Below are positions 1,104 through 57,288 of a stretch of 64,000 nucleotides of DNA, piece by piece; within the stretch, counting starts at the first letter, position 1; the number at the start of each line of letters is the position of its first letter. The notes below the pieces were generated by a model. It had not been told where the DNA came from. It saw only the letters and a program-made list of their open reading frames with translations, and did no database searches. A program made the position numbers and the translations under genes. The stretch comes from Dehalococcoidia bacterium. GTDB taxonomy: Bacteria; Chloroflexota; Dehalococcoidia; Lucifugimonadales; UBA2985. Location: contig CBDCTU010000002.1 of NCBI GenBank assembly GCA_965222415.1, forward strand, positions 260,663-324,662, read 5' to 3'.

Positions 1104-2430
1104 ATGCTACCACGCAACCACCTCGACCGCATCCAAGTCGCCTTCGACGATCACCGCCTGGTGGACAATGCCGGCCTACTCCTCCCAGCCACCTTGGCCC
1201 TGCACCTCGGTCTTTCCCAACTGGTACAGCAGCGCCTGGACCTGGGTGATGCGCCGGGCCGGGCCAACACCGGCGACAAGATAATGACGCTGGTCGCCTC
1301 CGCGCTGGCTGGCGGCGACTGCATCGACGCCGCCGATGCGCTGCGAGCCGGTGGGACGGCCGGTGTTCTCGACTGCCTGGTCAAGGCGCCATCCACACTG
1401 GGCACTTTCCTGCGCAGCTTTCGCTGGGGCCACGTCCGCCAACTGGACCGGGTGAGCCGCGAGTTGCTGGCACGGGCATGGCAGGCCGGAGCCGGACCCG
1501 GCGACGCACCCTTGACTATCGACCTCGATCCCACCGTCTGCGAGACCTACGGACTGGACAAGGAAGGGGCGCGACACCATGGTTACACCGGCAAGCGGGG
1601 CTATCACCCACTGCTGGCTATCGCCGCCAGCACCGGAGACGTGCTGATGGCCCGGCTGCGCGAGGGCCGCGCCAACACCGCCCGCGGCGCCGCCCACTTC
1701 CTGCGTGAGACGGTGGGGCGGGTGCGCTACGCCGGGGCCAAGGGACAACTCACGGTGCGGGCCGACAGCGGCTTCTACGCTCATAGCGTGGTATCCGTCT
1801 GCCGCAAGATGGATGTCCGCTTCTCCATCACCCTCCGCCAGCACAAAAGCCTGCGCAATGTCATCGAGGCCATACCTGAAGATGCCTGGACGCCGATTCC
1901 CTACTGGATGGACGGCGCCGCCGATGTGGCAGAGACCACCTATATCCCCTTCCAGAGTGAGCCCGACGCCGCGTCGGTGCGGCTCATCGTCCGGCGGGTG
2001 AAGCCCACGCCCGGTTCCCAGTTGGCCCTTTTCGCCACCTACAGCTATCACGGCTTCATCACCGACCGCGATGGGGAGATGCTCGAACTGGAGGCTGATC
2101 ATCGCCGCCACGCCGAGATCGAGAATGCGATACGCGACCTCAAGTACGGTGTCGGACTGAACCACATGCCGTCCGGCCGCTTCGCCGCCAACGGCGCCTG
2201 GCTGGCGGTACAGGTGATGGCGCACAACCTGGCCCGCTGGACAGCCCGCATCGGCCTGGATGAGCAGATCGTGACCACCAAAGACCCTCAGACGACGGGT
2301 CTTCGCACTAGCCGGACGGCTCACCCGCTCGGCACGCCGCCTCACCCTGCATCTGCCACAGCGCTGGCCTTGGGATACCCAGTTCAGTCGCACCCTGGCC
2401 CGGCTGCGAGCCATTCCACTCCCAGCCTGA
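1104..2430 (+). pseudogene. IS1380-family DDE transposase with a +1 frameshift near 2283
   Basis: Contains HRRHAEIENAIRDLKYGVGLNHMPSGRFAANGAW. After ..IVTTK the family-typical tail TLRRRVFALAGRLTRSARRLTLHLPQRWPWDTQFSRTLARLRAIPLPA* continues one frame over and stops at 2428-2430. The 570-aa track ORF runs on in the wrong frame. Confidence 0.8.
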
Positions 2431-2646
2431 CGGCGCCCTCCGCCACTGACCCAACGTCCCCGCAAACTGAACGTCCCCGCAAACTCGCGCCAGTCCGGTC
2501 CGCGAGCGCCTCTTGCCGTGTCCTATCACGCCATCTCCCTCACCACAGCCACTGTAAGCCGCCATCGGCGCCCCCAAAAGCGCCTGCGACCGCCGCCAAC
2601 CTCCCATCTACCCGAATTCGAGCCCGGACCATCGCTTGTGTAACTT

Positions 2647-2691
2647 CCTCACCCTCCTTCCAGTGTCCTCACCCTCCTTCCAGTGTCCTCA
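2647..2691. repeat. Perfect 20-bp tandem repeat, 2.25 copies (CCTCACCCTCCTTCCAGTGT)
   Basis: Read directly: 2647-2666 equals 2667-2686, then CCTCA. It lies in the 3' non-coding part of the IS1380 element. Confidence 0.95.
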
Positions 2692-2724
2692 CGCCGTCCA
2701 TCCGTGTCCATCGGTGGATTCGGG

Positions 2725-2872
2725 CTAAGGCCAAGGGTGGGATTGGTCTCCCATTGCCCGTATTCATCCTACTACTTGCCGTGGAGGCAGGAGGATTCGC
2801 CATAGCCAGCAATTGAGCAACTAACCTTAGTAACACGACACTAGGAGCAATTGCTGACTTACGCTCGGTCAT
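2725..2872 (-). pseudogene. Upstream piece of the same rve-type transposase remnant
   Basis: ORF 2669-2872 reads ..NTGNGRPIPPLAL up to the IS1380 end. Removing 982-2724 plus one CTAA copy joins it in frame to LDGLLACNRTYETVRPHQ.. at 981. Confidence 0.45.
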
Positions 2873-5297: not shown

Positions 5298-6191
5298 TTA
5301 AGCGCCACCCGCCTCCGGCTGCGCCAACATACAAGAGATGCCAGGCGTCACGACAGGCGTAACCGACACCCGACCGCGGCTGTCGTACCCCGCACGGTAC
5401 GCATACTCCACCTTCGCGCCCCAGGGCACACGACCGCCGACCCGAATAGCGCCGCCTTGGCCCTGACCCGCCCCTTCACCGGCCCCACGCACCACCACTC
5501 CGTGCCGGTCACCCTTCTTCCAAGCCAGCACCTTCACCTCGGCGGGCACAACCCGCTCCTCTCTGGTCGGCCTAAACAGGACCCCGTGAAGCTTCTTCAG
5601 AACTCCCGCCGACGGAGTGGCCTTGCCGGACATGATGTTGGAGATGTGAGCCGAGCTGACCCCGGCCCGCCGGGCAACCTCGTTCTGGCTGATCCCATGA
5701 GCGTCCATCCGGCTCCACAGAGCTTCCTGGTCAACACAGGCGCGCTTTGCAGGAGCGACCTTGGCTGGTGCCTCCAGCGCAGACTCGACCCGCGCCTGGA
5801 CCTTGACGCCCATCCTCCTACGGCCCCGTGACACCTCCGTCATGTAGCCGTAACTCACCCCCACACGCTCGGCCAGGTCCTTCATGCTCATGCCCAACTC
5901 ACGAGCACGCTCACGAATAAAGCTGCTCTCCCCGCTCACCACGTCCCTCTGGCGGTAGACGAGTCCCTGACCGGGGGCCTCACCCAACGCTGCCAATGCC
6001 CTGTCCCGCATCCTGGTGGTCCACCGCCTGCGCCCTGATGCAAGCAGTGACAGGTATCCCCGGGTGACACCCAGTTCTGCCGCAAGCTCGCTCATCGTCA
6101 GCCCGCAGCGCCTCGCCGCGGCCCTGAGCTCACTCTCATAACCCGCTGCCGAGGTACCCTTGGTCCTATTGCTCATAGTTGCCGTTGTCAT
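5298..6191 (-). CDS. Triple helix-turn-helix (XRE-like x3) DNA-binding protein, module copy 1
   Basis: AGGAGG lies upstream of the ATG. Three HTH units are visible: LTMSELAAELGVTRGYLSLLASGRR, MSMKDLAERVGVSYGYMTEVSRGRR and ISQNEVARRAGVSSAHISNIMSGK. A beta-rich C-terminal domain follows. A full-length paralog sits at 53744-54646. Confidence 0.75.
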   Translation of the reverse strand: MTTATMSNRTKGTSAAGYESELRAAARRCGLTMSELAAELGVTRGYLSLLASGRRRWTTRMRDRALAALGEAPGQGLVYRQRDVVSGESSFIRERARELGMSMKDLAERVGVSYGYMTEVSRGRRRMGVKVQARVESALEAPAKVAPAKRACVDQEALWSRMDAHGISQNEVARRAGVSSAHISNIMSGKATPSAGVLKKLHGVLFRPTREERVVPAEVKVLAWKKGDRHGVVVRGAGEGAGQGQGGAIRVGGRVPWGAKVEYAYRAGYDSRGRVSVTPVVTPGISCMLAQPEAGGA

Positions 6192-6316
6192 CTCTACCTC
6201 CTACTTGTCTTGTTGCCTTGGATGAGCCCGTTTGCGGGCAAAGAAGAAGGGCCGACTCCGTATGGAGCCGGCCCTTGTGTATTGGGGCTATGTTGTGGTC
6301 GGGGCTTAGACGCCCG

Positions 6317-6562
6317 TCAGTGTTTGAGCCTTGGTACCCTGCGCCGAGACATCAACCTCCGGAGCAGCAGCGCACCGATGCCCAGCCCGACGAGGTGCAG
6401 TGCGAAGACCTCAACATCGCCGGTAACCGGCGGTAGTCGGAATCGCAGCACAGCGAAGCCGACCGTCATCGTCAGCCGCCTGCGCCGCGGGGCGATCCCG
6501 CCGAAGCCCGCTGGAACACTCTTGACCCTTGGAACCGTTGCCTTGATTTCTATGACGCTCAT
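6317..6562 (-). CDS. Small (81 aa) predicted membrane protein, module copy 1
   Basis: AAAGGAGA lies 6 nt upstream of the ATG at 6562. The protein MSVIEIKATVPRV... has a hydrophobic C-terminal half (VFALHLVGLGIGALLL). A paralog of identical length sits at 54773-55018. Confidence 0.6.
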   Translation of the reverse strand: MSVIEIKATVPRVKSVPAGFGGIAPRRRRLTMTVGFAVLRFRLPPVTGDVEVFALHLVGLGIGALLLRRLMSRRRVPRLKH

Positions 6563-6685
6563 TGATGTCTCCTTTCTGTTGCTGACCCGTGCAGGCATCC
6601 GTGGCGCGGGTCGTTGGTGATGAGGCTGACTAGTGACGCACTCCATCCTCGGTCGGATGCCGGAAGCGGGAGACGGAGTGTGGGT

Positions 6686-6888
6686 GAAGAAGGCGCAGCT
6701 CGCCCAGGGTCACATCACGGGAACCGTCTCAGGGGGAACTACTGAGGCGAGCGACCGGCCTGAGAGCTGGTCATAGAACAGCGCGGGCGAAAGTAGGCGC
6801 AGCTCGACCAGGGTCACATCACGGGAACCGACTCAGGAGAGCTGCTGCTACGTGGGGGATGAGGAAGACGCAGCGAGACCCGGGAGCT
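6686..6888. repeat. Iteron-like direct repeats, ~104-bp phasing (module copy 1)
   Basis: AGGCGCAGCTCG(C/A)CCAGGGTCACATCACGGGAACCG occurs at 6691-6726 and 6795-6830. A degenerate third copy, GAGGAAGACGCAGCGAGACCCGGGAGCT, lies at 6861-6888. The same repeat family occurs at 55146-55403. Confidence 0.8.
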
Positions 6889-7041
6889 AGATCGATAACG
6901 TCCTGGGATGCTGCGTGCGAGGGAAGCGGCCAGCCTGCGAAGACCTCATCGCAGACCGGCGCGTGGTGAAGCTGCGGCCAGTTCCACAGGAACCATGCCG
7001 CAGACGTGAGGAACCGGCCAGTGTGCAGGGCGCACTCCGAC

Positions 7042-7069
7042 CAGAGCCTGCCCCGTACTCGATACGGGG
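7042..7069. repeat. Conserved motif with 7-bp-stem hairpin, copy 1 of 3
   Basis: CAGAGCCTGCCCCGTACTCGATACGGGG, with stem CCCCGTA/TACGGGG and loop CTCGA. Near-identical copies lie at 13196-13223 and 55529-55555. Confidence 0.85.
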
Positions 7070-7391
7070 GTGTCCGAGGGGCCGAAGCGGGAAGCGCTTG
7101 GGCCGCTGCGAATGTGTCCCTCCGGGGCGGCCTTCGGGAGAGCGCAATGCTCGATCCCTCCGGTCAGTACCCCTGGGCGGCTATTCGGAGAGCGCGGTGC
7201 TCGATCCCATGCAGCCGGTCCCGGATTCGGGGGACGGGAACCCTCCAGGTTTCTCGGCGGGAAACACTGGAAAAGCCTGAAACTGACTCCATTATTGCCG
7301 AACGCCCGTGCGAAAGGAAGGGTTTGGCGTCGCCTGCGCCCAAAGCGTTCTGTCCAGTTCCACGAAACCCTAAGCGCGCCCCTGAAAGCGC

Positions 7392-8219
7392 CTACTGGCG
7401 CCACACATTCAGGGTGAGGATGCGCCTCGCCAACCGTCTCCAGGCCACCGCCCTTCGGACTTCGCGGAGGGTCTCCCGTCGCCAGTTGAGCTGCGAGCTC
7501 CGCCACAGGCCCGTCAGGGGCATAGTCTCCGGCGGCAGCGTCAGCCCGTGCTCCTCCAGCATGGCCACCTCCAACTCACGCACACGCAGCTCGACCTCCA
7601 GCCACGCCAGACCCCTGCCCCCGGCGGAGTGGGTCCTCCACAGCCTGCGCCACTCCTCGATGAGGGGCCACGCCTCGCCGTAGACCTGCTCGTCGTCGGG
7701 AGCCGGCTCCTTCGTCACCAGCTCGGGGTACAGTCGCCTTCCCACGGTGTGCCGCTCCGGCCTTCCGACTTCCTGCGGCGGTTCGGACACCGCCTCGGCG
7801 CCCTGGCGAGTCTTGGGCTGGTCCGCCGCACGCTCCATCCGCTTCGGCGCCCTGGTCCCCTCCTCACGCAGAGCCTGAACCGCCTCCTTCATCGCCGTGT
7901 CGGCATCTTCGAGGCCGCTTCGGAGTTCCATTTCCAACGCGTCCACCCGCCGCTCCAGGGCACTGATACGGTCGTCCGGTTGAGCGCCCGGTTCGTCACC
8001 CTCCGCCGACCGTTGCCGCTCCAGCGCCTCGCGGACCCGCCACGACATCCCCTCTCCGTCCATGCACGCCCCAACCGTCCTGGGGTCCAGGCCCAGCTCC
8101 CTGGCCGCCTCCACGCGTCCCTTCTTCCTCACCATGTCGTGCAGCAGCGCCCTGAGGCTCAGAACGTGCTCCTCCTCGGCGTCCACCCCGTCGGACACTG
8201 ACCGCTCACTCGATTCCAT
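7392..8219 (-). CDS. HTH plus long coiled-coil protein, module copy 1
   Basis: Probable start is MESSERS at 8219; the track ORF extends to 8267. The N-terminal HTH-like segment is GRVEAARELGLDPRTVGACM. The middle is heptad-rich (ISALERRVDALEMELRSGLED). The paralog is 55851-56693. Confidence 0.65.
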   Translation of the reverse strand: MESSERSVSDGVDAEEEHVLSLRALLHDMVRKKGRVEAARELGLDPRTVGACMDGEGMSWRVREALERQRSAEGDEPGAQPDDRISALERRVDALEMELRSGLEDADTAMKEAVQALREEGTRAPKRMERAADQPKTRQGAEAVSEPPQEVGRPERHTVGRRLYPELVTKEPAPDDEQVYGEAWPLIEEWRRLWRTHSAGGRGLAWLEVELRVRELEVAMLEEHGLTLPPETMPLTGLWRSSQLNWRRETLREVRRAVAWRRLARRILTLNVWRQ

Positions 8220-9055
8220 ACGTTTCACCCCTTCTGCAACTTGCTGCAACCTGTGTTTCCGCCGCAACCGGCCCCTGACAAAAGGTGTTCGCCGTTCACG
8301 TCCTGTAGGGGGCCGTTCCCCCCCAAATCAGCTTTGCCGACTACCCGATCTGCAACTTGCACACAGACTCGATTCCCTGTACAGCCCCATGACATCACGG
8401 CGGCCCCTCCGTCTGTAATCCCCCGGAGGGCACCTCATCGATGTACTCCCCTCAAGGTCACTACATCCGTGTAGTGCCTTCCAGGGGATAACCCTCGGCT
8501 TCCCGACTCCCCAGACTCGATGGCAAAACAGACGGCCCCATCAGCGACGAGGAGGCGAAAACATGGGAGCGCAATCGACCGATCAACGGACCCTCGGCAG
8601 AGCCGGAGGACGCGCCAGAAGGCTTCGGCGCCTGGCCTCATGTCCTGGAGAGGACTGTCCGGTAGGGGCTGCATACCCGGGATTCCGGCCTTCTCGTCCA
8701 ATTGCTTGCTCCGATGTAGCAGCAATGCCGGCCTCCCTCTGGGCGGTCTCCCTTTCAGTGACCGGAACCAGCCCATTCACCAGAGCGCTCGCAACTACGG
8801 CTCCCACCTCCCTCTTTTGCGGCCATTTCACGTTCAAACCTGCCCCAGACCGCCCTCCTGGGAGTCGGCGCAAATCCCTGTACACGGGTATGACAGCACA
8901 TCCCGCCCATTTCCGCCCATGGCCCCAAAAGGGAGGACTCGCGCGTCCTCCCAAGTGCGGCATGGTGTCCCGCCTCACGGCTCCCCACACTCGATTGCAA
9001 TCAGACGGACGGTGACAGCCCGATGCGGGCTCACGCGAGCCCGGCGAAGAGAGCG

Positions 9056-9283
9056 ATGAACGACAAGAGCAGACAGAACGGGCAACCGACGCCCGAAGAG
9101 GACCTCTCCGAGTTCGGCGTGGTCAGGGTCATCTCCAGGCCCGTCCCCGACGCCGAGGACAGGCTGCGCCGTCTCTTCACTATCCTGCTCAAGCCCCCTG
9201 ACAGTGACGGGCACGCTGCGTCCGAGAAGGACCCGCCCCCGGACGACCGGCATGTGGATAACCACCTGGAGGCTGAAATCTGA
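9056..9283 (+). CDS. Small hypothetical protein (start 9023 or 9056)
   Basis: Third-position G/C is strongly enriched. The protein reads MNDKSRQNGQPTPEEDLSEFGVVRVISRPVPDAEDRLRRLFTILLK... Its stop overlaps the next gene's start (TGATG at 9281-9285). Confidence 0.5.
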   Translation: MNDKSRQNGQPTPEEDLSEFGVVRVISRPVPDAEDRLRRLFTILLKPPDSDGHAASEKDPPPDDRHVDNHLEAEI

Positions 9284-10521
9284 TGCGGTCCGAGTCGTCC
9301 CCCGACCGTCAGAAGCCTGCGCCGAGGGATTCGGCTCTCAGCCACGACGCCCCATATCGGGCCGTCTTCGGAGACGTGTCGAAGATCATCGACGCGGCCA
9401 GGGAGACGGCCGCCCGCTCGGTGAACGCCGCCATGACCGCCGCGTACTGGCTCGTTGGGCGGCGCATCGTCGAGTTCGAGCAGTCGGGTGAGGACAGGGC
9501 CGAGTACGGAGCCGCGTTGATCGAGAGCCTGGCGCAGGACCTGACCGGGCAATTCGGACGGGGCTTCTCCCGTCAGAACCTCCAGAACATGCGACTGTTC
9601 TACCTTTCGCATCCGCCCGACCGGATTCGCCAGACACTGTCTGGCAAATTGAATCGACCCTCTCAAATGCCGATTCGCCAGAAGGCGTCTGGCATATCCG
9701 AAGCTTCCTCCGTCGAAGAGGGCTTCCACGACCTTCTGGCGGCCTTTCCGTTGCCCTGGTCGGCCTATGTACGGCTCCTGTCCGTAAGGGACGAGCACGC
9801 CCGCGAGTTCTACGAGACCGAGGCGCTGCGGGGAGGATGGTCGGTCCGCCAGCTAGACCGGCAGATCGGCTCACAGTTCTACGAGCGCACCGCCCTGTCC
9901 AAGAACAAGGCCGCCATGCTGGCGCGGGGGCAGAAGCCCAGGGCCGAAGACCTCGCGCGTCCCGAGGAGGAGGCCAAAGACCCCTTCGTCCTGGAGTTCC
10001 TTGACCTCAAGGACGAGTACTCGGAGAGCGACCTTGAAGAGGCGCTCATTCGCCACCTGGAGACCTTTCTCATGGAGCTCGGAGGCGACTTCTGCTTCAT
10101 GGGAAGGCAGAGGCGGCTGCGCATCGGCAACAGGTGGTACAGGGTAGACCTGCTCTTCTTTCACCGGACCCTGCGGTGCCTCGTGGTCATCGACCTGAAG
10201 ATCGGGGCGTTCACCCACGCCGACGCCGGGCAGATGCACCTCTACCTGAACTATGCCCGGGAGCGCTGGGCGCGGGAGGGCGAGAACCCGCCTGTCGGAC
10301 TCATCCTGTGCTCCGAGAAGGACGAGGCCCTGGCGCAGTATGCCCTCGATGGCCTGCCGAACAACGTGATGGCTGCGGAGTACCGGATCACCCTGCCGGA
10401 CGAGGCGCTCCTGGCGTCAGAGCTCGACCGGACGAGGCAGGCGATGGAGACGTACGGTTCATCAGCGGCGGGGGCTCCGACGACGACCGCCGCGTCGTCA
10501 GGTGACGAACCGGAGGATTGA
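9283..10521 (+). CDS. YhcG/DUF1016-family PDDEXK nuclease-like protein
   Basis: The N-terminal half has WLVGRRIVEFEQSGEDRAEYGAALIESLAQDL..FSRQNLQNMRLFY. The C-terminal half has FCFMGRQRRLRIGNRWYRVDLLFFHRTLRCLVVIDLKIG. Both are characteristic of DUF1016. Confidence 0.85.
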   Translation: MRSESSPDRQKPAPRDSALSHDAPYRAVFGDVSKIIDAARETAARSVNAAMTAAYWLVGRRIVEFEQSGEDRAEYGAALIESLAQDLTGQFGRGFSRQNLQNMRLFYLSHPPDRIRQTLSGKLNRPSQMPIRQKASGISEASSVEEGFHDLLAAFPLPWSAYVRLLSVRDEHAREFYETEALRGGWSVRQLDRQIGSQFYERTALSKNKAAMLARGQKPRAEDLARPEEEAKDPFVLEFLDLKDEYSESDLEEALIRHLETFLMELGGDFCFMGRQRRLRIGNRWYRVDLLFFHRTLRCLVVIDLKIGAFTHADAGQMHLYLNYARERWAREGENPPVGLILCSEKDEALAQYALDGLPNNVMAAEYRITLPDEALLASELDRTRQAMETYGSSAAGAPTTTAASSGDEPED

Positions 10522-11559: not shown

Positions 11560-13149
11560 ATGGCGATGAGAACCACCGATAGGGAGACGGGAACGAAACG
11601 GGCGGCCATATACTCCCGCGTGTCGGACAAGAGCCAGGACACGGAGGAGAAGGTCTCCATCTCCGAGCAGACCGCCGAGATGGAGGCCTACTGCGAGCGG
11701 AGGGGAATGACCATCACCGCCCGATACCAGGAGGTGGGCAGGGGCTGGTCCAAGAACCGCCCGGAGTTCCAGCGCATGCTGGCCGATGCGCGGGACGGCC
11801 GGTTCGACGTCATCGTCTGCTGGAAGATGGACAGGCTGAGCCGCGGGATGTACCCGGCAGCCGCCATGATGGAAGTCGTCGAGGCGCACCAGATTCGCCT
11901 GGAGTCGGTCATGGACCCCGTCGACATGAAGATGTTCGGGATCATGGCGGCCATCGGGAAGATAGAGCTGGACAACATCCGGGAGAGAACATCCATGGGC
12001 AGGCGCGGGAAGGCCAAGCAGGGCCGAATGCCGAATGGCTCGGTCCCCTATGGATACCGTATTGGGGAGGACGGCAAGCCGGTGGTATACGAGCCGGAGG
12101 CCGAGATCGTGAGGCGCATCTTCCGCCAGTACGTGCACGAAGGGATGGTGGGGCTGGAGATAGCCCGTCAGCTGGCCCGAGACAATGCCCCTACCTGGAG
12201 GCCCGGCTCGCGGTGGCAGAACTCCTACGTGCATTCTCTCCTCGGCAAGGAGGTCTACAAAGGCATCTGGTGGTACGGAAAGGCCCGCTGGGTGGCCACG
12301 GAGGGCAGGGACCGGGTCACTAGGCAGCCGGAGGACACGTGGATAGGGGTACCCTTCCCGCCCCTGGTGGACGAGCAGACGTGGGATCGGGCGCAGGCCA
12401 TCAAGAAGCAGCGGGCCTCCCTGTCCAAGCGGAACACCAAGGTCTTCTTCCTGTTGCAGCACCTCGTAAGGTGCTCCGAGTGCGGTCTGCTCTTCGGCTG
12501 CCGGTCCAAGACCAGAGCAACCGCGAAGTACAAGGACAGGAGGTACACCTACGACCTGAAGACTCCTAACCGCTACTACCACTGCTACGGAATGCAGAGG
12601 GAGCACATGCGGTGCCGGCAACGGCCATACATCCGAGCCGACAGGTTGGAGGAGCTGGTCTGGAGAGAGGTCAGAACGGTGGTTCAGAATCCCGACCTGA
12701 TCGTGAAGGGCATGGAGTCCATGGGGGAACAGGAGGATGGCGGGCTTCAGAAGCGGATTGCCATGGCGGAGCGTGAGCTCCGTAAGGTACAGACGGAGGA
12801 GGACAGGGCTATTGGCCTGTATGTATCAGGCAAGATCTCCGAGGACCAGCTCGACCACCAACGCAAGCGTATACAGGAACGTCTGGAAGCCGCACGGGCA
12901 AGGCTCTATGACTACCGTGCTCAAGGGGCAGCGGCCACGGAGAGGAAGGTACTGACGGGGAACATTGCCGAGTGGTCCCGCAGGATTGGCGGTCGATTGG
13001 ATGACCTGCCCTCCGAGGAGCGTCGGGACATCCTGAGGCTAATCGTGGACCAGATCGCCATAGATCGTGACAATAGCGTCACTATCACCCTGGGCATCCC
13101 GACTCAGGATTTCGTGTCAATTGAGAAAGAGGGCTCTCGAACCATTTGA
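11560..13149 (+). CDS. Large serine recombinase (resolvase domain + recombinase domain + zinc ribbon + coiled coil)
   Basis: GAGGAGGG precedes the ATG. RAAIYSRVSDKSQ contains the catalytic Ser. VIVCWKMDRLSRG is present. CSECGLLFGC...YYHCYG is the zinc ribbon. The C-terminus is coiled coil. Length is 529 aa. Confidence 0.9.
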   Translation: MAMRTTDRETGTKRAAIYSRVSDKSQDTEEKVSISEQTAEMEAYCERRGMTITARYQEVGRGWSKNRPEFQRMLADARDGRFDVIVCWKMDRLSRGMYPAAAMMEVVEAHQIRLESVMDPVDMKMFGIMAAIGKIELDNIRERTSMGRRGKAKQGRMPNGSVPYGYRIGEDGKPVVYEPEAEIVRRIFRQYVHEGMVGLEIARQLARDNAPTWRPGSRWQNSYVHSLLGKEVYKGIWWYGKARWVATEGRDRVTRQPEDTWIGVPFPPLVDEQTWDRAQAIKKQRASLSKRNTKVFFLLQHLVRCSECGLLFGCRSKTRATAKYKDRRYTYDLKTPNRYYHCYGMQREHMRCRQRPYIRADRLEELVWREVRTVVQNPDLIVKGMESMGEQEDGGLQKRIAMAERELRKVQTEEDRAIGLYVSGKISEDQLDHQRKRIQERLEAARARLYDYRAQGAAATERKVLTGNIAEWSRRIGGRLDDLPSEERRDILRLIVDQIAIDRDNSVTITLGIPTQDFVSIEKEGSRTI

Positions 13150-17732: not shown

Positions 17733-17805
<73 letters not shown>

Positions 17806-50021: not shown

Positions 50022-50100
50022 CTAGTAGAGTGCAGCTACCGCTTCAGCATACTCCTTCGGCGACCTGCCGTTCAACGAGCTGTGGGGTCTGACCTCATTG
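50022..50100 (-). pseudogene. C-terminal scrap of an rve-type transposase
   Basis: The minus strand reads NEVRPHSSLNGRSPKEYAEAVAALY*, with its stop at 50022-50024. It abuts and overlaps the stop of the restriction-modification gene. Confidence 0.5.
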
Positions 50101-53100
50101 TAGTCCTGTCGCCACCAGCCCCAAAATGCCGGCTATCCGCCGGGCGGTGTCCGTGAGGTCCTGCACCTCCTCAGGTCGCAGCGCCCTGCCCAATACGCCG
50201 CGCTCTCGGTAGGAGAGCCACTTCTTGAGCACCTGGTACCCGCCCAGCTTGTAGCTCCAGACCGCCGACGGGACGTTCCGCCAGTAGGCGCGGTCGTTGA
50301 GGTGGATGTCGAAGGTGGTATCGCCGAGGGCGTTTTCCGCGCTGCCCAGGGCGGCGCGCTCCTCAGATGTGTACGGGCGCTCGACGACGCGCCCCTGGCC
50401 TGGCATGACGGCCTCTCCCTGCCCGAAGTGCCCCCAGCCAGCCGTCACCGAGAAGTCGTCTCCGGCCATGTTGCCGCCGTCCGTGGTTGTCGGCACGGCA
50501 ACCGACGCAATCTCCGGCCGCAGCGCGCCCGTCGTGACGCCGGGTACGGGCGTCTCCGAGTCAAGCAGCGCGGCAAGTTCCCGTCCCCTGGAGGCCGAGG
50601 CCTTCAGCTCCTCCGCCGCTCCGGTGGCGTCGCCGTCCGGCCAGCCCGGCAGCGGAATGCGAGGCCACTCCATCCTGAGGGCGCCGGCGTTGGCCTCCCG
50701 GTAGGAGGGGTCATGCAGCACGGACAGGACGTGATGGAATAGGTCCTCCACGCCCAGGCCAAGGCGGTCCAGGTAGCCTTGGGCCGCGTCCGACAGGTTG
50801 GGACGTCGCTGCTCTCCGCCGCCGTCAAGTGCCATGCCCTCTTCATGGAGCCAGGCCGGAATACAAGTGGCACCTCTATCTATCAAGTCCAGGCAACCCA
50901 GGCTGGAGATAACCTGCGGAGGAGACCATTCTCTACGTGGTTTATGCTGTGCGACCATCCAAAGATTATTCTCGAATAGGTGCGGTTTGTAGTCTGGAAC
51001 TGGACGACCAAGCAGACCGTGTCCTGTTTCCCAATATAGCCATCTTGTATCAAACGGTCTGTAGGAATGTCGGACAAAGTTGTCATCAATCGGGCCACCA
51101 CGGGTGAGCAATGAGTTCCTCACCTTCTGAGCATCGGATACCACAAACCCCGATGAGCTCTTCATTGCGGAAGGGTACTTCGTTTCCACCTCAGTGCTAC
51201 TGACGGAGGGATCGAAGTATTCGCCCACCCTGGCCTTGAGTTTGTTGAGTTCTATGTCAATAAGAAACGCATCTCGTTTGCTCTGTACCCCTGGAAAAGA
51301 TACGGGAAACAAGTCCGGCAGCGCAGGCCAGGCAGACCATCCACCGCTGACCGCAACCGGGGTAAAGGGCAAACCCAGCGGTAAGCTCGGCTCAACGTTG
51401 CCATACAGAGTATTCGAACCCGTTTCGGCAGTCGCCGTCAAGTCGGAGAGCTTGGCCTGTCCCCACAGATGGCGGAAGCCGACTTCCTTGGCGGGTTGGT
51501 GGTCGGCTTTGCGCACAAGGGTCGTAATCGCCGTACCCACCTGGATGCCCACCGGATCGCCTAGCGTGGAGAAGATGCTTGGGTCGGGCGCGCCATCGGG
51601 AGTCGTCTTACCGGTCTTGTACTTGTCGCCGTTGAGGTTGTCTATGCGGATAGAGTCAAAGGCCTCCAGGTAGCGCTCCCTCATGCCCGTGAAGGAGAGG
51701 CCGTCCAGCCAGGAGTAGTTGGAGATGAAGCAGACCACGCCCCGGCCCGTCTTCTCGGCAATGCGACGCTCCGCCATGCGGAAGAAACGCACGTACAGGT
51801 CGTTCAGCCCCTGGCCCTCCGGTCTCCGCACCCGCCTGGTGGTCCGATAGGCCGTGGAGAGCTCCCGCTCCTCATCGACAGCCATCCCCGCAAAGCCGTT
51901 GTAGGGCGGATTGCCCAGGATGACCAGGACCGGCGTCTCCTGCTTCACCCTATCGGCGCGGTCGCGCTCCTCCTCCAGCTCCGGGAATGGCAGCGGCTTC
52001 TGCACGCTTGGCTCCCAGCCGGTGAGGGCGTTGGTGAGGTACACCCCGGCCCGCTCCGTCTCGTCATCGGACAGGGGGGCGTCCAGCGCCTGCATTGTCA
52101 GGCCAACCTGCAGATGGGAGACGACGAATGGCGCAGGCATGATCTCGAACCCGAACACCCTTTGAGTGGCCGCCCTCTTCACCTGCGCTCCGGTGAGTGC
52201 GCCGAGGCCCTTGCCCTGGAGGTTGGCGGCGATGCGACGCAGCACCTCGGCGAGGTACGTCCCCGTGCCGCAGCATGGGTCGAGGACGTATACGTTCTCA
52301 GCGGCCAGGCCGTCGGCGATGCCCAGGTCCTCCTTCAACGCCATGTCCACGCGGGCGACCATGTAGCGCGCCACCTCGGCGGGCGTGTACCAGACGCCCA
52401 GCTGCTTGCGAAGGTCGGGGTCGAAGGCCTCAAGGAACGGCTCGTAGAAGTAGGGCACGGCCTCGCCTGCGTCGAAGCGGTCGAAGAAGGCCGCGCGGTC
52501 GACCCGGTCCAGGGCCGCCGACGTCCAGTCCAACAGCTCGACTAGGCCCAGGGGCTGAAGCTGTGCGGGTGAAGACAGCTGCTGGAAGAGGGCGCGCAGG
52601 ACGGGTGCTCTCAGGTGCCAGACGGAGGTGCGCCAGTCGAATGGTCCGGTGGGCGGCGGCGTCTGGCGGGCCCAGAGCACCCATGCGGAGAAGACGCCGT
52701 AGAAGAGGGTCTGCACCAGCGTAGAGCGGAAGAAGGCCGCGCCACGCTCGCCCTCGAAGCGCACGCCCAGCGCCTCCTCCAGGGCGGAGCGCACGGCATG
52801 AAGGGATGGCTCGTCGCCCGCGGCCTCTACCCTTGCCAGCCCGTCCCTGGCGTAGGAGGCCAGCAGCCAAGCCAGGTCCCTGGGTTCGACTATCGACGCG
52901 CTGTGGGAGAGCGCACGGCACAGGTACTCCCCCAGCCCCGCTCCCACGTCGCTTGCGAACTTCCGCGGCTGCTCAAGCCGGGCGTGGAACGCCTGCTCCG
53001 ACTCTGCTACTCGGAAGGTCTCCAGCTTCACCGGGTTGCCCTGCCCGTCCTCCCCCACCAGCACGAAGTCGCGGGTGTTGGTGACCAGCACCAGCCTGTA

Positions 53101-53451
53101 GCGGCCCCAGTATCGGCTGACCTGGTCGCTGTCTGCGGTAAGCCAGGCGTCGTCGCCGGCGGGCTTGACCTCCACAACGCCCCGCTCAGGGACCTGGCCG
53201 GGGCGCGGCTTGCCCTTCTGCACCTGCTTCCTGGCGTACAAACCGAGGTCCGGGTGGCCCGCGCCCTGCTCGGCAAGCTCGCTTACGCAGAACACCTGGG
53301 GCTTGAGCGTGTTGCCTACGGCGTTCAGCAGGTTGGTCAGAGCCGGATAGTAAGATTTTTCCCCCGTTGCGCCGCCGGATGCTCGTATACTCCGTAGGTT
53401 GGCGAAGTACTCCTCGACTGCTGCGGTTAGCTTTGCTGTGGTTACTGGCAT
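50095..53451 (-). CDS. Single-polypeptide type IIG/IIL-like restriction-modification enzyme (N-terminal PD-(D/E)XK-like nuclease, gamma-class N6-adenine methyltransferase, C-terminal specificity region)
   Basis: GHPDLGLY...GVVEVKP is a D..EXK motif. VLDPCCGTGTYL is the SAM motif I. ILGNPPYNGF is motif IV (NPPY). The C-terminal WSYKLGGYQVLKKWLSYRE is what I recall from type ISP/IIG specificity domains. No helicase domain is present. Length is 1118 aa. Confidence 0.7.
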   Translation of the reverse strand: MPVTTAKLTAAVEEYFANLRSIRASGGATGEKSYYPALTNLLNAVGNTLKPQVFCVSELAEQGAGHPDLGLYARKQVQKGKPRPGQVPERGVVEVKPAGDDAWLTADSDQVSRYWGRYRLVLVTNTRDFVLVGEDGQGNPVKLETFRVAESEQAFHARLEQPRKFASDVGAGLGEYLCRALSHSASIVEPRDLAWLLASYARDGLARVEAAGDEPSLHAVRSALEEALGVRFEGERGAAFFRSTLVQTLFYGVFSAWVLWARQTPPPTGPFDWRTSVWHLRAPVLRALFQQLSSPAQLQPLGLVELLDWTSAALDRVDRAAFFDRFDAGEAVPYFYEPFLEAFDPDLRKQLGVWYTPAEVARYMVARVDMALKEDLGIADGLAAENVYVLDPCCGTGTYLAEVLRRIAANLQGKGLGALTGAQVKRAATQRVFGFEIMPAPFVVSHLQVGLTMQALDAPLSDDETERAGVYLTNALTGWEPSVQKPLPFPELEEERDRADRVKQETPVLVILGNPPYNGFAGMAVDEERELSTAYRTTRRVRRPEGQGLNDLYVRFFRMAERRIAEKTGRGVVCFISNYSWLDGLSFTGMRERYLEAFDSIRIDNLNGDKYKTGKTTPDGAPDPSIFSTLGDPVGIQVGTAITTLVRKADHQPAKEVGFRHLWGQAKLSDLTATAETGSNTLYGNVEPSLPLGLPFTPVAVSGGWSAWPALPDLFPVSFPGVQSKRDAFLIDIELNKLKARVGEYFDPSVSSTEVETKYPSAMKSSSGFVVSDAQKVRNSLLTRGGPIDDNFVRHSYRPFDTRWLYWETGHGLLGRPVPDYKPHLFENNLWMVAQHKPRREWSPPQVISSLGCLDLIDRGATCIPAWLHEEGMALDGGGEQRRPNLSDAAQGYLDRLGLGVEDLFHHVLSVLHDPSYREANAGALRMEWPRIPLPGWPDGDATGAAEELKASASRGRELAALLDSETPVPGVTTGALRPEIASVAVPTTTDGGNMAGDDFSVTAGWGHFGQGEAVMPGQGRVVERPYTSEERAALGSAENALGDTTFDIHLNDRAYWRNVPSAVWSYKLGGYQVLKKWLSYRERGVLGRALRPEEVQDLTDTARRIAGILGLVATGLQ

Positions 53452-53743: not shown

Positions 53744-54646
53744 CTAAGCACCATCCGGCTCCGGCTGTGTCAACATGCAGGAGTAACCCAGATTTACAAC
53801 GGGAGTCACCGACACCCGGCCCCGGTTGTCGTACCCCGCACGATACGCATACTCCACCTCCGCGCCCCAGGGCACACGTCCGCCGACCCGAATAGCGCCC
53901 TCTCCAATCTGACCCGCACCTCCACAGGCCCCACACACGACAACCCCGCGCCGGTCACCCTTCTTCCAAGCCAGAACCTTCACCTCCGCAGGCACAACCC
54001 GCTCCTCCTTCGCCGGCTGGAACAGGACCCCGTGCAGCTTCTTCAGAACTCCCGCCGACGGAATGGCCTTGCCGGACATGATGTTGGAGAGATGAGCGGA
54101 GCTTATCCCGGACCTCCGGGCTACCTCGTTCTGGCTGATCCCGTGAGCGTCCATTCGACTCCACAGAGCTCCCTGGTCAACACAGGCGCGCTTTGCAGGA
54201 GCGACCTTGGCCGGAGCCTCCAGGATGGACTCGACCCGCGCCTGGACCTTCACGCCCATTCTCCTGCGGCCACGGGACACCTCCGACATGTAGCCGTAAC
54301 TAACCCCCACACGCTCAGCCAGGTCCTTCATGTTCATACCAAGTTCACGAGCACGCTCCCGGATGTAGCTACTCTCTCCGCTAACACTGTCTCTCTGCCG
54401 GTAGACAACTCCTTGTCCCGGGGCCTCTCCCAACACCGCCACGGCCTTGTCACGCATCTTCGGAGTCCATCGCCTGCGCCCCGAGGCAAGCTCCGACAGG
54501 TAGCCCGCAGATACACCCATCTTCGCCGCAAGCTCCTTCATCGTGAGTCCGCAGCGCCTTGCCGCGGCCCTGAGCTCAGTCTCACATCCTGCTGCTGCCG
54601 TATCCTTGGTCCTATTGCTCATCGTTGCCGTTGCAGTCGTCATCAC
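53744..54646 (-). CDS. Triple-HTH DNA-binding protein, module copy 2
   Basis: A full-length paralog of 5298-6191. It has the same three HTH units and C-terminal domain, and most positions are identical. Confidence 0.75.
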   Translation of the reverse strand: MMTTATATMSNRTKDTAAAGCETELRAAARRCGLTMKELAAKMGVSAGYLSELASGRRRWTPKMRDKAVAVLGEAPGQGVVYRQRDSVSGESSYIRERARELGMNMKDLAERVGVSYGYMSEVSRGRRRMGVKVQARVESILEAPAKVAPAKRACVDQGALWSRMDAHGISQNEVARRSGISSAHLSNIMSGKAIPSAGVLKKLHGVLFQPAKEERVVPAEVKVLAWKKGDRRGVVVCGACGGAGQIGEGAIRVGGRVPWGAEVEYAYRAGYDNRGRVSVTPVVNLGYSCMLTQPEPDGA

Positions 54647-54772
54647 GACCTCCTTCTCTTGTTGTGTTGCCTTGGGTGGTGCCCGATTTCGGGCAAAGAA
54701 GAAGGGCCGGCTCCATATGGAGCCGGCCCTTGTGTATTGGAGACCAGTTGAAAGCGGTGGGTTAGACGCCCG

Positions 54773-55018
54773 TCAGTGTTTGTGCCTCGTTACCTTGTGC
54801 CGAGACATGATCCGCCGGAGCAGCAGCGCACAGATGCCCAGCCCGATGAGGTGCAGTGCGAAGACCTCCATGCCGCCGGCCAGCAGCAGTTGCCAGGCCA
54901 GCAGTGCAGCGAAGCCGACCGCCATCGTCAGCCGCCTGCGCCACGGGGCGAGCCCGCCAATGACCACAGGGATGATCTCGACCCTTGGAACCGTTGCCTT
55001 GATTTCTATGACGCTCAT
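54773..55018 (-). CDS. Small (81 aa) membrane protein, module copy 2
   Basis: MSVIEIKATVPRV... has the same length and RBS context as 6317-6562. Confidence 0.6.
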   Translation of the reverse strand: MSVIEIKATVPRVEIIPVVIGGLAPWRRRLTMAVGFAALLAWQLLLAGGMEVFALHLIGLGICALLLRRIMSRHKVTRHKH

Positions 55019-55145
55019 TGATATCTCCTTTCTATTGCTGACCCGCGCTGGCATCCGTAACGCGGTTCTTTGTTCTTGGGTTCGGTTGACGCTGGACACA
55101 CTACGCCCACGGTCGGGTGCCGGACGCGTGAGACGGAGGGGGGTT

Positions 55146-55403
55146 GAAGAAGACGCAGCTCGCCCAGGGTCACATCACAGGGAACGGACTTAGGGGGAGC
55201 TACTGAGGGGAGCGATCGGCCTGGGAGCTGGTCACAGGACGACGCGATGAAGAAGACGCAACTCGGCCAGGGTAATGAGACAGGAATTCTTATGGTGTGG
55301 GCTGCTATCTAAGAAACGTCTGACCTACGAGATGGTCATAGGGCGACGCAGGTGAAGAAAGGCGCAGCTTGGCTTGGGCCAGAAACGTCCAGGTGGGAAC
55401 CGC
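55146..55403. repeat. Iteron-like direct repeats, ~103-106-bp phasing (module copy 2)
   Basis: GAAGAAGACGCAGCTCGCCCAGGGTCACATCACAGGGAACGG lies at 55146-55187. Degenerate copies lie at 55249-55286 and 55355-55403. This is the same family as 6686-6888. Confidence 0.8.
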
Positions 55404-55528
55404 GTGGAATGAAGCGACTGGCCTGTCCATAACTGCAGACCAGTGCGTGTTGAAGCTGCGGTATGTGGCAGTTGGTAGCAAACCGCAGGCATGTGGAACC
55501 GATCGGAGTCACAGACGCACTCCGAGCA

Positions 55529-55555
55529 AGAGCCTGTCCCATACTCGATACGGGG
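55529..55555. repeat. Conserved hairpin motif, copy 3 of 3
   Basis: AGAGCCTGTCCCATACTCGATACGGGG. The stem has one A-C mismatch relative to copy 1. Confidence 0.8.
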
Positions 55556-55850
55556 AAATCCCGGCTTTCAAAGCGACACTTGGGGGAGCAATGCTCAACC
55601 CCTCCACCGCATCACGCAGCCAGAAGGCGATTGTCCCTCATGGGCGGACCGTTCGGAGAGCAACGCTCGATCCTAAGCGGCCTGTCCCGGGTCGGGGACC
55701 GGACCCTCCAGGTTTCTCGGCACGAAATCCTGGAAAAGCCTGACAATGGAACCAATTATTGCCGGACAATCATTGCGAATCAAGTGTTCTGCCCCAATTG
55801 ATTACTCCGATGTGACAACCTGGCTAATCTACGACTTCCAAACCACACAC

Positions 55851-56693
55851 TTAAACAAAGGTCCGCCACAGTCCGAAGGTCAAAAACCTGCGCAGCCTCT
55901 GCATCAGCTGAAGCCTGCCCCACTCCGATTGACTCTCCTCCATCGCTTTGACTCGCCTCTGAAGCTCATCTCTTTTCTGAATCTGGTCCCAAGGATGCGT
56001 CGCCGGCGGAAGCGTCATCCCGTACTCATCTATCAATGCAATCTCCAGCTCCCGCAGCCGAGCCTCGGCCTGTGCCTTCTGCATTGCGCCTCCGCCAGCC
56101 AGGAACCCGCTCCGAACATGCCTCCACTCCACAATCAGCGGCAGCGCAGCGCCGTATATCTGCTCCTCACCAGGCTCCGGCTCAAGGGTCACAAGTTCTG
56201 AGTACTGCCTCCACGCCGGCTTCACAGGCGGTCTCTTCGGCACATTGCTAGTAGCTTCCGACCTGCCCCTAGCTTCCTGGACTGATTCCAGCGCTGCCAA
56301 TCTCTTCTCAATAAGCCGAATGGCCTGTGCATAATCCTCCCGCAGTCCAGCAATCCCGTCCTCCAGTGCCCTGCGCAACTCAGCGTGGCCGGCCTTTACC
56401 GCTGCCTCCAACGACGCCATGCGTTTCTCCAAAGCCTCGATACGCTCCCTGTGCTTGGCAGTCTCCGGGTCAGCCCCCGTCAGAAGTGCAAACTCCAAGG
56501 CCCCTCGAACCCGCCTCGACAGCCTGTCTCCTTCGATGCTGGCTGCCACGGTCCTGTGGTCTACACCCAGCGCCCTGGCAGCTCCTCTGCGTCCCTTTTC
56601 CTTCACCAGATCCTGCAACAGGGACATCAGCCTAAGCTCGTATTGGTCCTCTGTGTTACGACGCTGCTCCATTATCTCTGCGCCTTGCTTCAT
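55851..56693 (-). CDS. HTH plus coiled-coil protein, module copy 2
   Basis: GRRGAARALGVDHRTVAASI is the HTH-like segment. A long heptad-rich middle follows. The C-terminal ..YGMTLPPATHPW.. parallels ..HGLTLPPETMPL.. in 7392-8219. Confidence 0.65.
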   Translation of the reverse strand: MKQGAEIMEQRRNTEDQYELRLMSLLQDLVKEKGRRGAARALGVDHRTVAASIEGDRLSRRVRGALEFALLTGADPETAKHRERIEALEKRMASLEAAVKAGHAELRRALEDGIAGLREDYAQAIRLIEKRLAALESVQEARGRSEATSNVPKRPPVKPAWRQYSELVTLEPEPGEEQIYGAALPLIVEWRHVRSGFLAGGGAMQKAQAEARLRELEIALIDEYGMTLPPATHPWDQIQKRDELQRRVKAMEESQSEWGRLQLMQRLRRFLTFGLWRTFV

Positions 56694-57288
56694 GTCCTAC
56701 GCCCCCTCCCAAGGACTTGCCTCTCTCAGCCCAGGCAATCTGGTCAATCTCGCCGGCAGTATCCCGTGGTGAGAAACCACTCCTCTCCTGCATGATAGCC
56801 CAGCCACTGGATCAGCCCAACCACCGGATGTCACTGGTAGTCGCCTCTCCCGTTCCACCCAACGATTGTAGAAGTGCAATTCTCAGCTTGACCGCTGTCC
56901 AACGGCCTCCATTCCCTCAGGTGACAACTTGTACATTCTGAACACACGACTTGTACCACCCCACCGGGACTGGCTCTTTACTCTAAGTGCTTACTGTGAT
57001 GTGCCTGAACCTTAACAGACTTGCAGTCTTGCTCGCCCCCGCACGCTTGGCACTGGCCTACATTGTTCCACTTACCTTCTTCCACCCCAAACCTCATTCT
57101 CTGTACTACCCCCGCAAGGCACGCGCCCACTCGGAAAATGCACTTTACAAGAGACGGCTTGGACGGTCTGTCATGAGACGCCGGCGGAACACCGGGTCAA
57201 TCTACACCGCATACCACGCGGTTCTTGGGAGGGCATTCCCCGGACACTGACATCAGGGACTTGGGCAACTATCCTACTGCAATCTACT

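Follow-up and report, generated by a model that had tools for sequence, protein, structure and literature searches.

In a 64,000-nucleotide (nt) stretch of DNA from a Dehalococcoidia bacterium (contig CBDCTU010000002.1, positions 260,663 to 324,662; hereafter the window), two diverged copies of one module lie on the minus strand, both with the order coiled-coil (CC) gene, non-coding stretch, open reading frame (ORF) for a small membrane protein, and triple helix-turn-helix (triple-HTH) gene. Our results indicate that the non-coding stretch is, with good probability, an RNA of conserved structure read from the minus strand of the window. An earlier note on this DNA had seen in it a plasmid-type iteron origin or a transfer origin (oriT), with a structured regulatory RNA as the alternative; it is the alternative that is favoured by a conserved promoter, covariance-model matches on a single strand, compensatory changes, an excess of G-U pairs and GNRA loops. 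The predicted transcript is composed of a promoter, a modular leader of ~720 nt, an optional ORF with two transmembrane (TM) helices, an intrinsic terminator and regulator genes. In copy 1, the non-coding stretch up to the CC gene spans 6563-7391. The most probable start codon of the membrane ORF is the ATG at 6562, which follows AGGAGA, so that the non-coding stretch is longer than was first described and its conserved part is 6563-7330.

Conservation of the spacer between the two copies, as reported in the earlier note, was confirmed. The spacers are 73-81% identical, compared with 83-84% for the TM and HTH genes and 68% for the CC gene at the DNA level; the CC proteins share only 38% identity, and the leader is thus better conserved than the CC gene. 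All the repeats and hairpins that had been listed were found in both copies, at or within a few bases of the positions given for them. A protein-guided scan with the HTH protein produced 32 loci, all in metagenome-assembled genomes (MAGs) of Dehalococcoidia or Chloroflexota and often three to four per genome, which were oriented with the HTH gene on the plus strand, equivalent to the minus strand of the window. The sequence data used here are MAGs and metagenomes. The spacer core (window 7114-7301) was detected by blastn and nhmmer upstream of the HTH gene in every locus with enough upstream DNA, and in this sense the repeats and stems recur in homologous elements, well in excess of what chance would give. 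The sole exception among the 32 is locus L002, where the upstream DNA ends after 678 nt and one repeat unit is present. A degenerate DNA pattern derived from the core matched 28 metagenome contigs, 15 of which carry the core according to a hidden Markov model (HMM).

The best-conserved part of the leader is its 5' domain, on the minus strand at 7176..7280 in copy 1 (covariance model R1, 109 bits, E = 3e-19) and at 55644..55743 in copy 2 (97.7 bits, E = 6e-17). It consists of the helices P1, P2, P3 and P3a, which were derived by hand from a multi-clade alignment; R1 was built from 17 sequences aligned with MAFFT (alignment A5), and fitting to R1 gave alignment A6, with 49 distinct sequences. 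P1 (7245..7270, minus strand) is formed by CCAG(U)GUUUC, a loop with a conserved GCC, and GAAACCUGG, and an A-U pair in it is replaced by G-C in five sequences. It corresponds to the CCAGGTTTC...GAAACCTGG hairpin of the earlier note, present at 7245-7270 and 55708-55733. P2 (7223..7243, minus strand) is formed by GGGUUC, the loop CCGUCCCCC and GAAUCC; four of its six pairs change on both sides, and one pair is seen as G-C, A-U and G-U. P3 (7178..7217, minus strand) is an enclosing helix in which 7217→7212 pairs with 7183→7178 around the hairpin P3a (7207→7187, minus strand), which reads GGAUCGAGC-loop-GCUCUCC (GGA-UC-GAGC/GCUC-UCC). Changes on both sides affect all six pairs of P3 and five of the seven pairs of P3a.

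P3/P3a is the first copy of what had been noticed as a second repeat in the spacer. The second copy, P4/P4a (7122..7158, with its hairpin at 7136-7158, minus strand), is a duplicate with 81% identity to 7172-7208, and the counterparts in copy 2 of the module lie at 55583-55602 and 55655-55673. In P4/P4a, an A-U pair is G-C in 12 of 34 sequences, and some relatives have a third copy of the P3/P3a module. In L060 and L042, GGA/UCC and GAGC/GCUC are replaced by GGU/ACC and GAGU/ACUC.

In A6, the proposed helices are paired in 94.1% of cells, and double-sided changes occur at 17 of the 28 pairs; the covariation score of 0.240 compares with 0.101 for shuffled alignments, and none of 500 shuffles reached the observed values. 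When the pairing partners were slid by one to three columns, 35-48% of cells were paired. In A5, which was not fitted to the model, 96.3% of cells are paired and eight pairs are double-sided, and 0/500 shuffles reached either value. The covariation check on homologous spacers that had been suggested in the earlier note gives compensatory changes above shuffles, in the 5' domain and also in the tandem units described below. RNAalifold applied to the raw MAFFT alignment of the core gave a poor consensus, because the register shifts between clades.

One of the hairpins listed earlier needs to be reinterpreted. GTCCC/GGGAC is indeed present at 7218-7235 and 55684-55699, but covariation backs another helix, GGGTTC/GAATCC (7223-7243), which is P2. 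Given that GTCCC/GGGAC overlaps the loop of the better-supported P2, it could only form as a pseudoknot (7218..7235, minus strand), with GUCCC of the P2 loop (7235→7231) pairing with GGGAC (7222→7218). This candidate is compatible with 98.6% of the cells of A5, with no double-sided change, and the loop CCC occurs together with the flanking GGG in 34/49 sequences. Two candidate tertiary contacts, between the 5' GGC and GCC of the P1 loop and between UCCC of the P2 loop and the 3' GGGA, are compatible with the sequences, but the bases are invariant and the contacts are not established. An extension of P1 by UUUU/AGGG was rejected, since its G residues belong to the covarying P2.

The repeats described as iterons are tandem two-hairpin RNA modules, not DNA iterons. 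Covariance model R2 places three units on the minus strand of copy 1 within 6685..6965 (6965→6860, 6859→6789 and 6787→6685), and in copy 2, within 55145..55449, two units (55449→55354 and 55248→55145), between which nhmmer added a third (~55249-55353, matched at 55364→55247). On the minus strand, each unit comprises a hairpin Ha (...GCGCCGUCCUG...CAGGCCGGUCGC), a hairpin Hb (GCAGCUCCCC...GGG-C-GAGCUGC) and a CU-rich tail, GUCUUCUUCA. The 36-mer of the earlier note corresponds to the 3' strand of Hb plus an inner hairpin. As direct repeats these were recovered at 6687-6733 and 6791-6837 (94% identity, 104 bp apart) and at 55145-55181 and 55248-55284 (81% identity, 103 bp apart), and nhmmer and the covariance model retrieved the degenerate third repeats as well (6860-6965 and 6789-6859; 55354-55449 and 55247-55364). 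R2 found 36 units, in tandem arrays of two to four (four in L006, three in L001). For 35 distinct units, the paired fraction is 89.9% of cells and double-sided changes affect 13 of 20 pairs, values that 0/500 shuffles reach; in the controls with slid partners, 31-44% of cells were paired. The spacing of 103-106 bp that had been likened to ten helical turns is seen in the pairs 104 and 103 bp apart, but it is not general: units are spaced 66 to ~129 nt apart, with 104 and 66 nt within copy 1 itself, and the idea of ten helical turns is therefore not valid in general.

Between the 5' domain and the units, a minimum free energy fold gives a middle domain of four hairpins on the minus strand (6932..7069), at 7051-7069 (CCCCGUA...), 7016-7042, 6972-7003 and 6932-6957. 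The first is the CCCCGTA/TACGGGG hairpin reported before, and its equivalent in copy 2 is at 55538-55554. By inspection, the middle-domain hairpins show compensatory differences between the copies, such as CUGCGGC/GCCGCAG versus CUGCGGU/ACCGCAG. The 3' end of the leader (6563..6684, minus strand) has, also by inspection, hairpins at 6639-6680 and 6584-6612, with compensatory differences between the copies, and the Shine-Dalgarno sequence AGGAGA at 6568-6573. CU-rich tracts of the leader show complementarity, by eye only, to the Shine-Dalgarno site; an anti-Shine-Dalgarno role is not established.

Several observations fix the strand. All 50 matches of R1 are on the same strand; apart from one marginal match, those of the covariance models in general lie on one strand, as do all with E below 0.06. 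Pairs of the type G-U/U-G outnumber A-C/C-A by 68:15 in the 35 units and by 49:26 in the 5' domain, an asymmetry that would have no meaning for duplex DNA. A GNRA-capped variable insertion, CCCUG-GAAA-CAGGG, occurs in L051, and the whole P3 arm is swapped for a GNRA-capped hairpin in L059 (CACC-GAAA-GGUG) and in L043 (GAGA loop). Such arm swaps and GNRA-capped insertions are typical of structured RNAs and point to the same strand.

The predicted promoter is located just after the CC gene and reads straight into the region. In copy 1 it lies at 7291..7320 on the minus strand, with the -10 element AATAAT (7296→7291) and a weak -35 element CTTCCT (7320→7315); in copy 2 it is TTGATT-17-AATAAT (55755..55783, minus strand). 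In 45 of 49 homologues, the end of a sigma-70-like -35/-10 pair lies 10-12 nt ahead of position 1 of the RNA model, which would place the transcription start of copy 1 at ~7284, by consensus only; many of these pairs are TTGACA-17/18-TAxxxT. Promoters of the form TTGACA-17/18-TAxxxx are found in L009, L013, L016, L017, L024 and L028, and L001 has TTGTCA-17-AATAAT. The promoter and the 5' domain are tandemly duplicated in L009 (3590-4340), L016 (3046/3992), L017 (3538/4025), L028 (913/1397), L032 (2258/4255), where the CC gene is duplicated along with them, and L058. The tandem 5'-domain copies fall into two sequence types, 'a' and 'b', suggestive of nesting of, or recombination between, the leaders of different elements.

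Downstream of the leader lies the membrane ORF, at 6317..6562 in copy 1 and 54773..55018 in copy 2 (minus strand). It encodes 81 amino acids (aa) with two predicted TM helices, is arginine-rich and has a basic C-terminus, and its product has no match in Pfam, PHROGs, NCBIfam or a PDB sequence search. Between the copies there are 41 substitutions, spread 16/13/12 over codon positions, without indels and with intact frames, and identity is 83% for DNA and 67% for protein; the small membrane protein looks fast-evolving or diversifying, or else weakly constrained. A profile HMM finds the TM ORF after the RNA in 16 loci; many others lack it or, like L012, have a degenerate version. It escapes the HMM in L003, L005, L011 and L023, all of which have the terminator. 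In L022 the leader runs directly into another gene, F3, with the same ribosome-binding-site context. In the metagenome contig L038 (2433-5768), a TM-ORF homologue lies ~2.8 kb downstream of the RNA 5' domain, where 0.5-0.7 kb is usual, and a partial second core follows the first at 2541-2633.

The intrinsic terminator follows ~40 nt after the stop codon of the TM ORF, at 6237..6276 in copy 1, with a 13-bp stem and the tail CUUCUUCUUUG, and at 54692..54731 in copy 2 (both minus strand). In copy 1, 46 nt separate it from the start codon (6191) of the triple-HTH gene. At least 14 loci have it conserved, with compensatory changes in the stem and the invariant tail CUUCUUCUUUGCCCG; the carriers include L003, L005, L006, L011, L012, L014, L015, L020, L023, L026, L027 and both copies in the window. 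The next start codon comes 46-60 nt after the terminator, and belongs to the HTH gene in the window and to F3 in most relatives. No promoter-like site was found between the terminator and the HTH gene in either copy in the window. The tail of the terminator resembles the CU-rich tail of each tandem unit.

F3 is a gene of ~150 aa with the motif RRSLEELVDRL, located between the terminator and the HTH gene in most relatives among loci L003-L030 (for example L012:5208-5660 and L022:5211-5714) and absent from both copies in the window. Its protein has no match in Pfam, PHROGs or NCBIfam, nor a PDB sequence match. F3 and the HTH gene of the window share an N-terminal MTTAT... and the ribosome-binding-site context, which suggests modular recombination at this point.

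The leader would act in cis, setting the transcription or translation of the downstream genes. The likeliest route would be control of terminator read-through, of the antitermination or attenuation type, with the repeated hairpin modules offering several sites at which an element protein (CC, F3 or HTH) could bind. We propose only tentatively that the leader may control read-through of the conserved terminator. The proposal is favoured because synthesis of the RNA would begin with the best-conserved domain, within a few nt of the predicted transcription start, because the regulator genes are apparently reachable only through the terminator, and because each unit is a hairpin followed by a CU-rich tail, echoing the tail of the terminator. 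It is a more speculative idea, and a somewhat doubtful one, that a new class of large (~0.5-0.75 kb) modular RNA forms the decision element of a widespread, wholly uncharacterised family of Dehalococcoidia conjugative elements, in which the 5' domain, perhaps with a pseudoknot, and the module arrays would reprogramme RNA polymerase or titrate an element protein, so deciding passage through the terminator into the regulators, with the number of modules (two to four) setting the threshold.

Comparable arrangements are known. In plasmid pCF10, the prgQ leader contains a small hydrophobic-peptide ORF followed by the IRS1 terminator, and in Tn916 an attenuator lies in the tet(M) leader; in both, terminator read-through is needed to express downstream regulatory or transfer genes of the conjugative element. 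The layout found here is the same, a promoter-proximal leader and then an intrinsic terminator on a conjugative element, but there is no sequence or structural similarity, and the leader is far longer (~720 nt) and made of tandem structured modules. Moreover, 13 loci revealed no promoter for a counter-transcript, there was no sign of a leader peptide with regulatory codons, and the host belongs to another phylum. Processive antitermination RNAs, such as put of phage HK022 and EAR of the Bacillus eps operon (70-120 nt), and the nut-site/N system provide a second likeness. As in these, a structured RNA directly follows the promoter of a mobile-element operon, with a terminator hundreds of nt downstream, before the genes that matter; in the window, the RNA begins a few nt after the predicted start and the terminators (6276→6237 and 54731→54692) lie downstream. 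The RNA described here differs from put and EAR in that no Rfam family matches it, that it is about six times longer, and that a clade without the terminator keeps it.

Some points weigh against an RNA with these functions. Two of the alignments, A6 and A8, were made by fitting to the model, and the relatedness of the sequences means that the shuffle controls overstate significance. In A7, a MAFFT alignment of 15 unit sequences, covariation was not above shuffles, and the support for the units therefore leans on the model-fitted alignment. Folding z-scores of the 722-nt leader against shuffles are weak (-1.3 for the minus strand and -1.0 for the plus strand), and the G-U excess of the 5' domain is only about two-fold. 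The promoter and transcription start are consensus predictions, and a strict scan called the copy-2 site only. A role at the DNA level, for instance as operator sites, may overlap the RNA. Finally, the clade L007/L010/L019/L021/L022/L025/L029/L030, of which only L022 was read through by eye, has neither an HMM-detected TM ORF nor the strict terminator-tail pattern. Since this clade without the terminator keeps the RNA, read-through cannot be the whole story and control of the terminator is perhaps not universal.

It is possible, but rather unlikely, that the region encodes a stand-alone large non-coding RNA or ribonucleoprotein with a function of its own, either with the two-TM protein as partner, in the manner of OLE and OapA, or as a protein sponge. 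The length, the modular repeats and the invariant loop bases are typical of large functional RNAs, 16 loci encode a small, highly basic membrane protein immediately downstream, and this protein is less widespread and less well conserved than the RNA. The large 'ornate' non-coding RNAs of bacteria include OLE, GOLLD, ROOL and raiA; GOLLD and ROOL are linked to mobile elements, and OLE is found beside oapA. The RNA described here shares with them a length of several hundred nt, many covarying helices, invariant loop nucleotides and the linkage to a mobile element or a small membrane gene, but it has no Rfam 15 match, and whole domains duplicated in tandem within the RNA would be unusual among those classes. 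Many loci retain the RNA with the membrane ORF absent or degenerate. There is no terminator between the RNA and the ORF, and in every case the RNA leads into the ribosome-binding site of the gene that follows, in a context conserved whichever gene that is; this contiguity makes it look like a 5' untranslated region rather than a free-standing RNA gene.

The leader interpretation could also take the form of a type I toxin-antitoxin-like system, in which a folded 5' untranslated region keeps a membrane toxin untranslated and post-segregational killing results. We consider this improbable. The ORF is small, fast-evolving and has two TM helices, and it sits on a mobile element behind a long structured untranslated region and before a terminator, as such a system would. 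Nevertheless, neither strand of the leader-ORF region showed an antisense promoter-like site in the 13 loci covered, about half of the loci keep the leader with the ORF absent or degenerate, and 81 aa exceeds the typical size of type I toxins. A type III toxin-antitoxin system, with repeats like those of ToxI, was rejected: the downstream two-TM ORF has no Pfam, PHROGs or NCBIfam match, and no terminator was found between the repeats and the TM ORF.

An iteron-type replication origin or oriT, with the repeats as duplex sites for an initiator or relaxase and the hairpins as nick-site or unwinding elements, is very unlikely. It had been suggested by direct repeats ~104 bp apart in both copies and by the presence of a Replic_Relax gene, which lies ~1.4 kb from copy 2, and the element family is conjugative and does encode Replic_Relax. 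The association holds for copy 2, but there is no such gene near copy 1 and in intact elements (L061 and L062) it is ~10 kb off. The variable spacing of the units (66 to ~129 nt) and their helices with compensatory changes and 68:15 G-U over A-C speak against duplex binding sites. There is no AT-rich stretch, the lowest GC content over 40 nt being 0.425 in copy 1 and 0.40 in copy 2, and no DnaA box (TTATCCACA, up to one mismatch) inside either spacer. The conserved predicted promoter reads straight into the region, and blastn of the spacer against plasmid and phage collections retrieved no record with this DNA. Iteron origins of theta-type plasmids, such as pPS10 and RK2 oriV, have repeats of 17-22 bp. 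Several direct repeats in a non-coding stretch of a mobile element are common to both, but the units here are of ~70-130 nt, irregular rather than regularly spaced, and covary as RNA. No Rep gene adjoins them; the neighbours are always the CC gene and the TM, F3 or HTH genes. An oriT has a nick site with a flanking inverted repeat, recognised by the relaxase, and usually adjoins the relaxase gene; in intact elements, the relaxase-like gene is not adjacent to the region studied here, and the covarying hairpins of this region extend over 700 nt, far beyond a typical oriT. We know of no nick-site consensus for Replic_Relax proteins. The interval 56694-57288, between the divergent CC and Replic_Relax genes of copy 2, would be a more natural candidate location for an oriT than the region studied.

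The spacer is non-coding, and the notion that it is a protein gene (the plus-strand ORF 6915-7280, for which a similar C-terminal peptide exists in copy 2, or the minus-strand ORF 6946-7506) can be dismissed: ORFs of 121 and 186 codons do exist, but long spurious ORFs are expected at 63-68% GC, neither has a Pfam match above threshold, and the codon-position and indel pattern refutes a coding function as far as sequence comparison allows. In the frame of 6915-7280, which the earlier note had kept as a potential gene, substitutions against copy 2 are spread 30/29/28 over codon positions, in contrast to 28/28/89 for the HTH gene between the copies. Indels that are not multiples of three number 25 of 31 against copy 2 and 29 of 34 against L006; in the comparisons with copy 2 and with six close relatives, each of which has 26-44 internal indels, 18-34 of these break the frame.

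Returning to the structured leader, it is a candidate for a new RNA class, given that no Rfam family matches it, and it would represent a new family of a known kind, the structured leader or non-coding RNAs of mobile elements. At gathering threshold, Rfam 15 matched only a tRNA elsewhere in the window, a search of 6200-7700 up to E = 10 returned noise only, and 11 related loci had no match to Rfam 15 families, riboswitches, ribozymes, OLE, GOLLD, ROOL, HEARO and others included. A full-text literature search returned nothing on the RNA or the element, and neither Rfam 15 nor this search gave a comparable leader in Dehalococcoidia or their mobile elements. Structured leader RNAs are known regulators, but this length, tandem domain duplication and covariation are rare, and as its sequences align well this RNA is a new candidate for studies of structure and mechanism. 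As a marker of the control region in a conjugative-element family whose CC partner has at least 828 clusters, it may offer a handle on the regulation of gene transfer in abundant, mostly uncultured soil and sediment bacteria. It also calls for caution in annotation, as a mobile element may carry phased direct repeats next to hairpins that do not form an origin.

The element family, found in Dehalococcoidia, is integrative and conjugative. In two contigs with a CC homologue (L061 and L062), the cassette is divergent from a type IV secretion system (T4SS) operon with TrbL, two pilins, VirB4/TraC, a TrwB-type coupling protein and Replic_Relax, and the RNA 5' domain directly follows the CC gene. 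The same T4SS genes are upstream of the CC gene in L003, L006, L013, L014, L020, L026, L027 and L038, and in further loci, copy 1 among them, that side is instead occupied by a YhcG nuclease and a large serine recombinase. A scan of IMG/VR with the core pattern gave no match, and hence no evidence for a viral element. The order CC, RNA, optional TM ORF, optional terminator, optional F3 and HTH was seen in all loci, including contigs found by the RNA pattern alone. As the TM ORF is often missing, it is not the membrane protein but the upstream CC gene and the downstream regulator genes that constantly accompany the RNA.

The CC gene is located at 7392-8267 in copy 1 and 55851-56693 in copy 2 (minus strand). 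The 828 or more clusters of its family come from public metagenomes; the family has no name and no Pfam domain, and the CC protein had no match in Pfam, PHROGs, NCBIfam or a PDB sequence search. An AlphaFold2 model (pLDDT 72) shows an N-terminal HTH-like helical domain, a coiled coil of ~50 residues, a disordered linker and a helical C-terminal domain; Foldseek against the PDB gave no significant match, with a weak XRE or lambda-cII-like hint for the N-terminus (E ~1). The triple-HTH gene (3 x HTH_3; 5298-6191 in copy 1 and 53744-54646 in copy 2, minus strand) encodes a protein with generic XRE HTH matches only in Pfam, PHROGs, NCBIfam and the PDB sequence search.

No T4SS genes of the intact element type were found anywhere in the 64-kb window, so that both copies look like remnants, or like rearranged or truncated elements. 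Copy 1 is flanked by a DDE transposase and a TPR gene on one side, and by a YhcG PDDEXK nuclease, a large serine recombinase and a tRNA gene on the other. The flanks of copy 2 hold a type ISP restriction-modification gene and the Replic_Relax gene. The genes and tRNA surrounding the two copies lie at 1104-2816 (+), 9283-10521 (+), 11560-13149 (+), 17733-17805 (-), 50095-53451 (-) and 57289-59001 (+).

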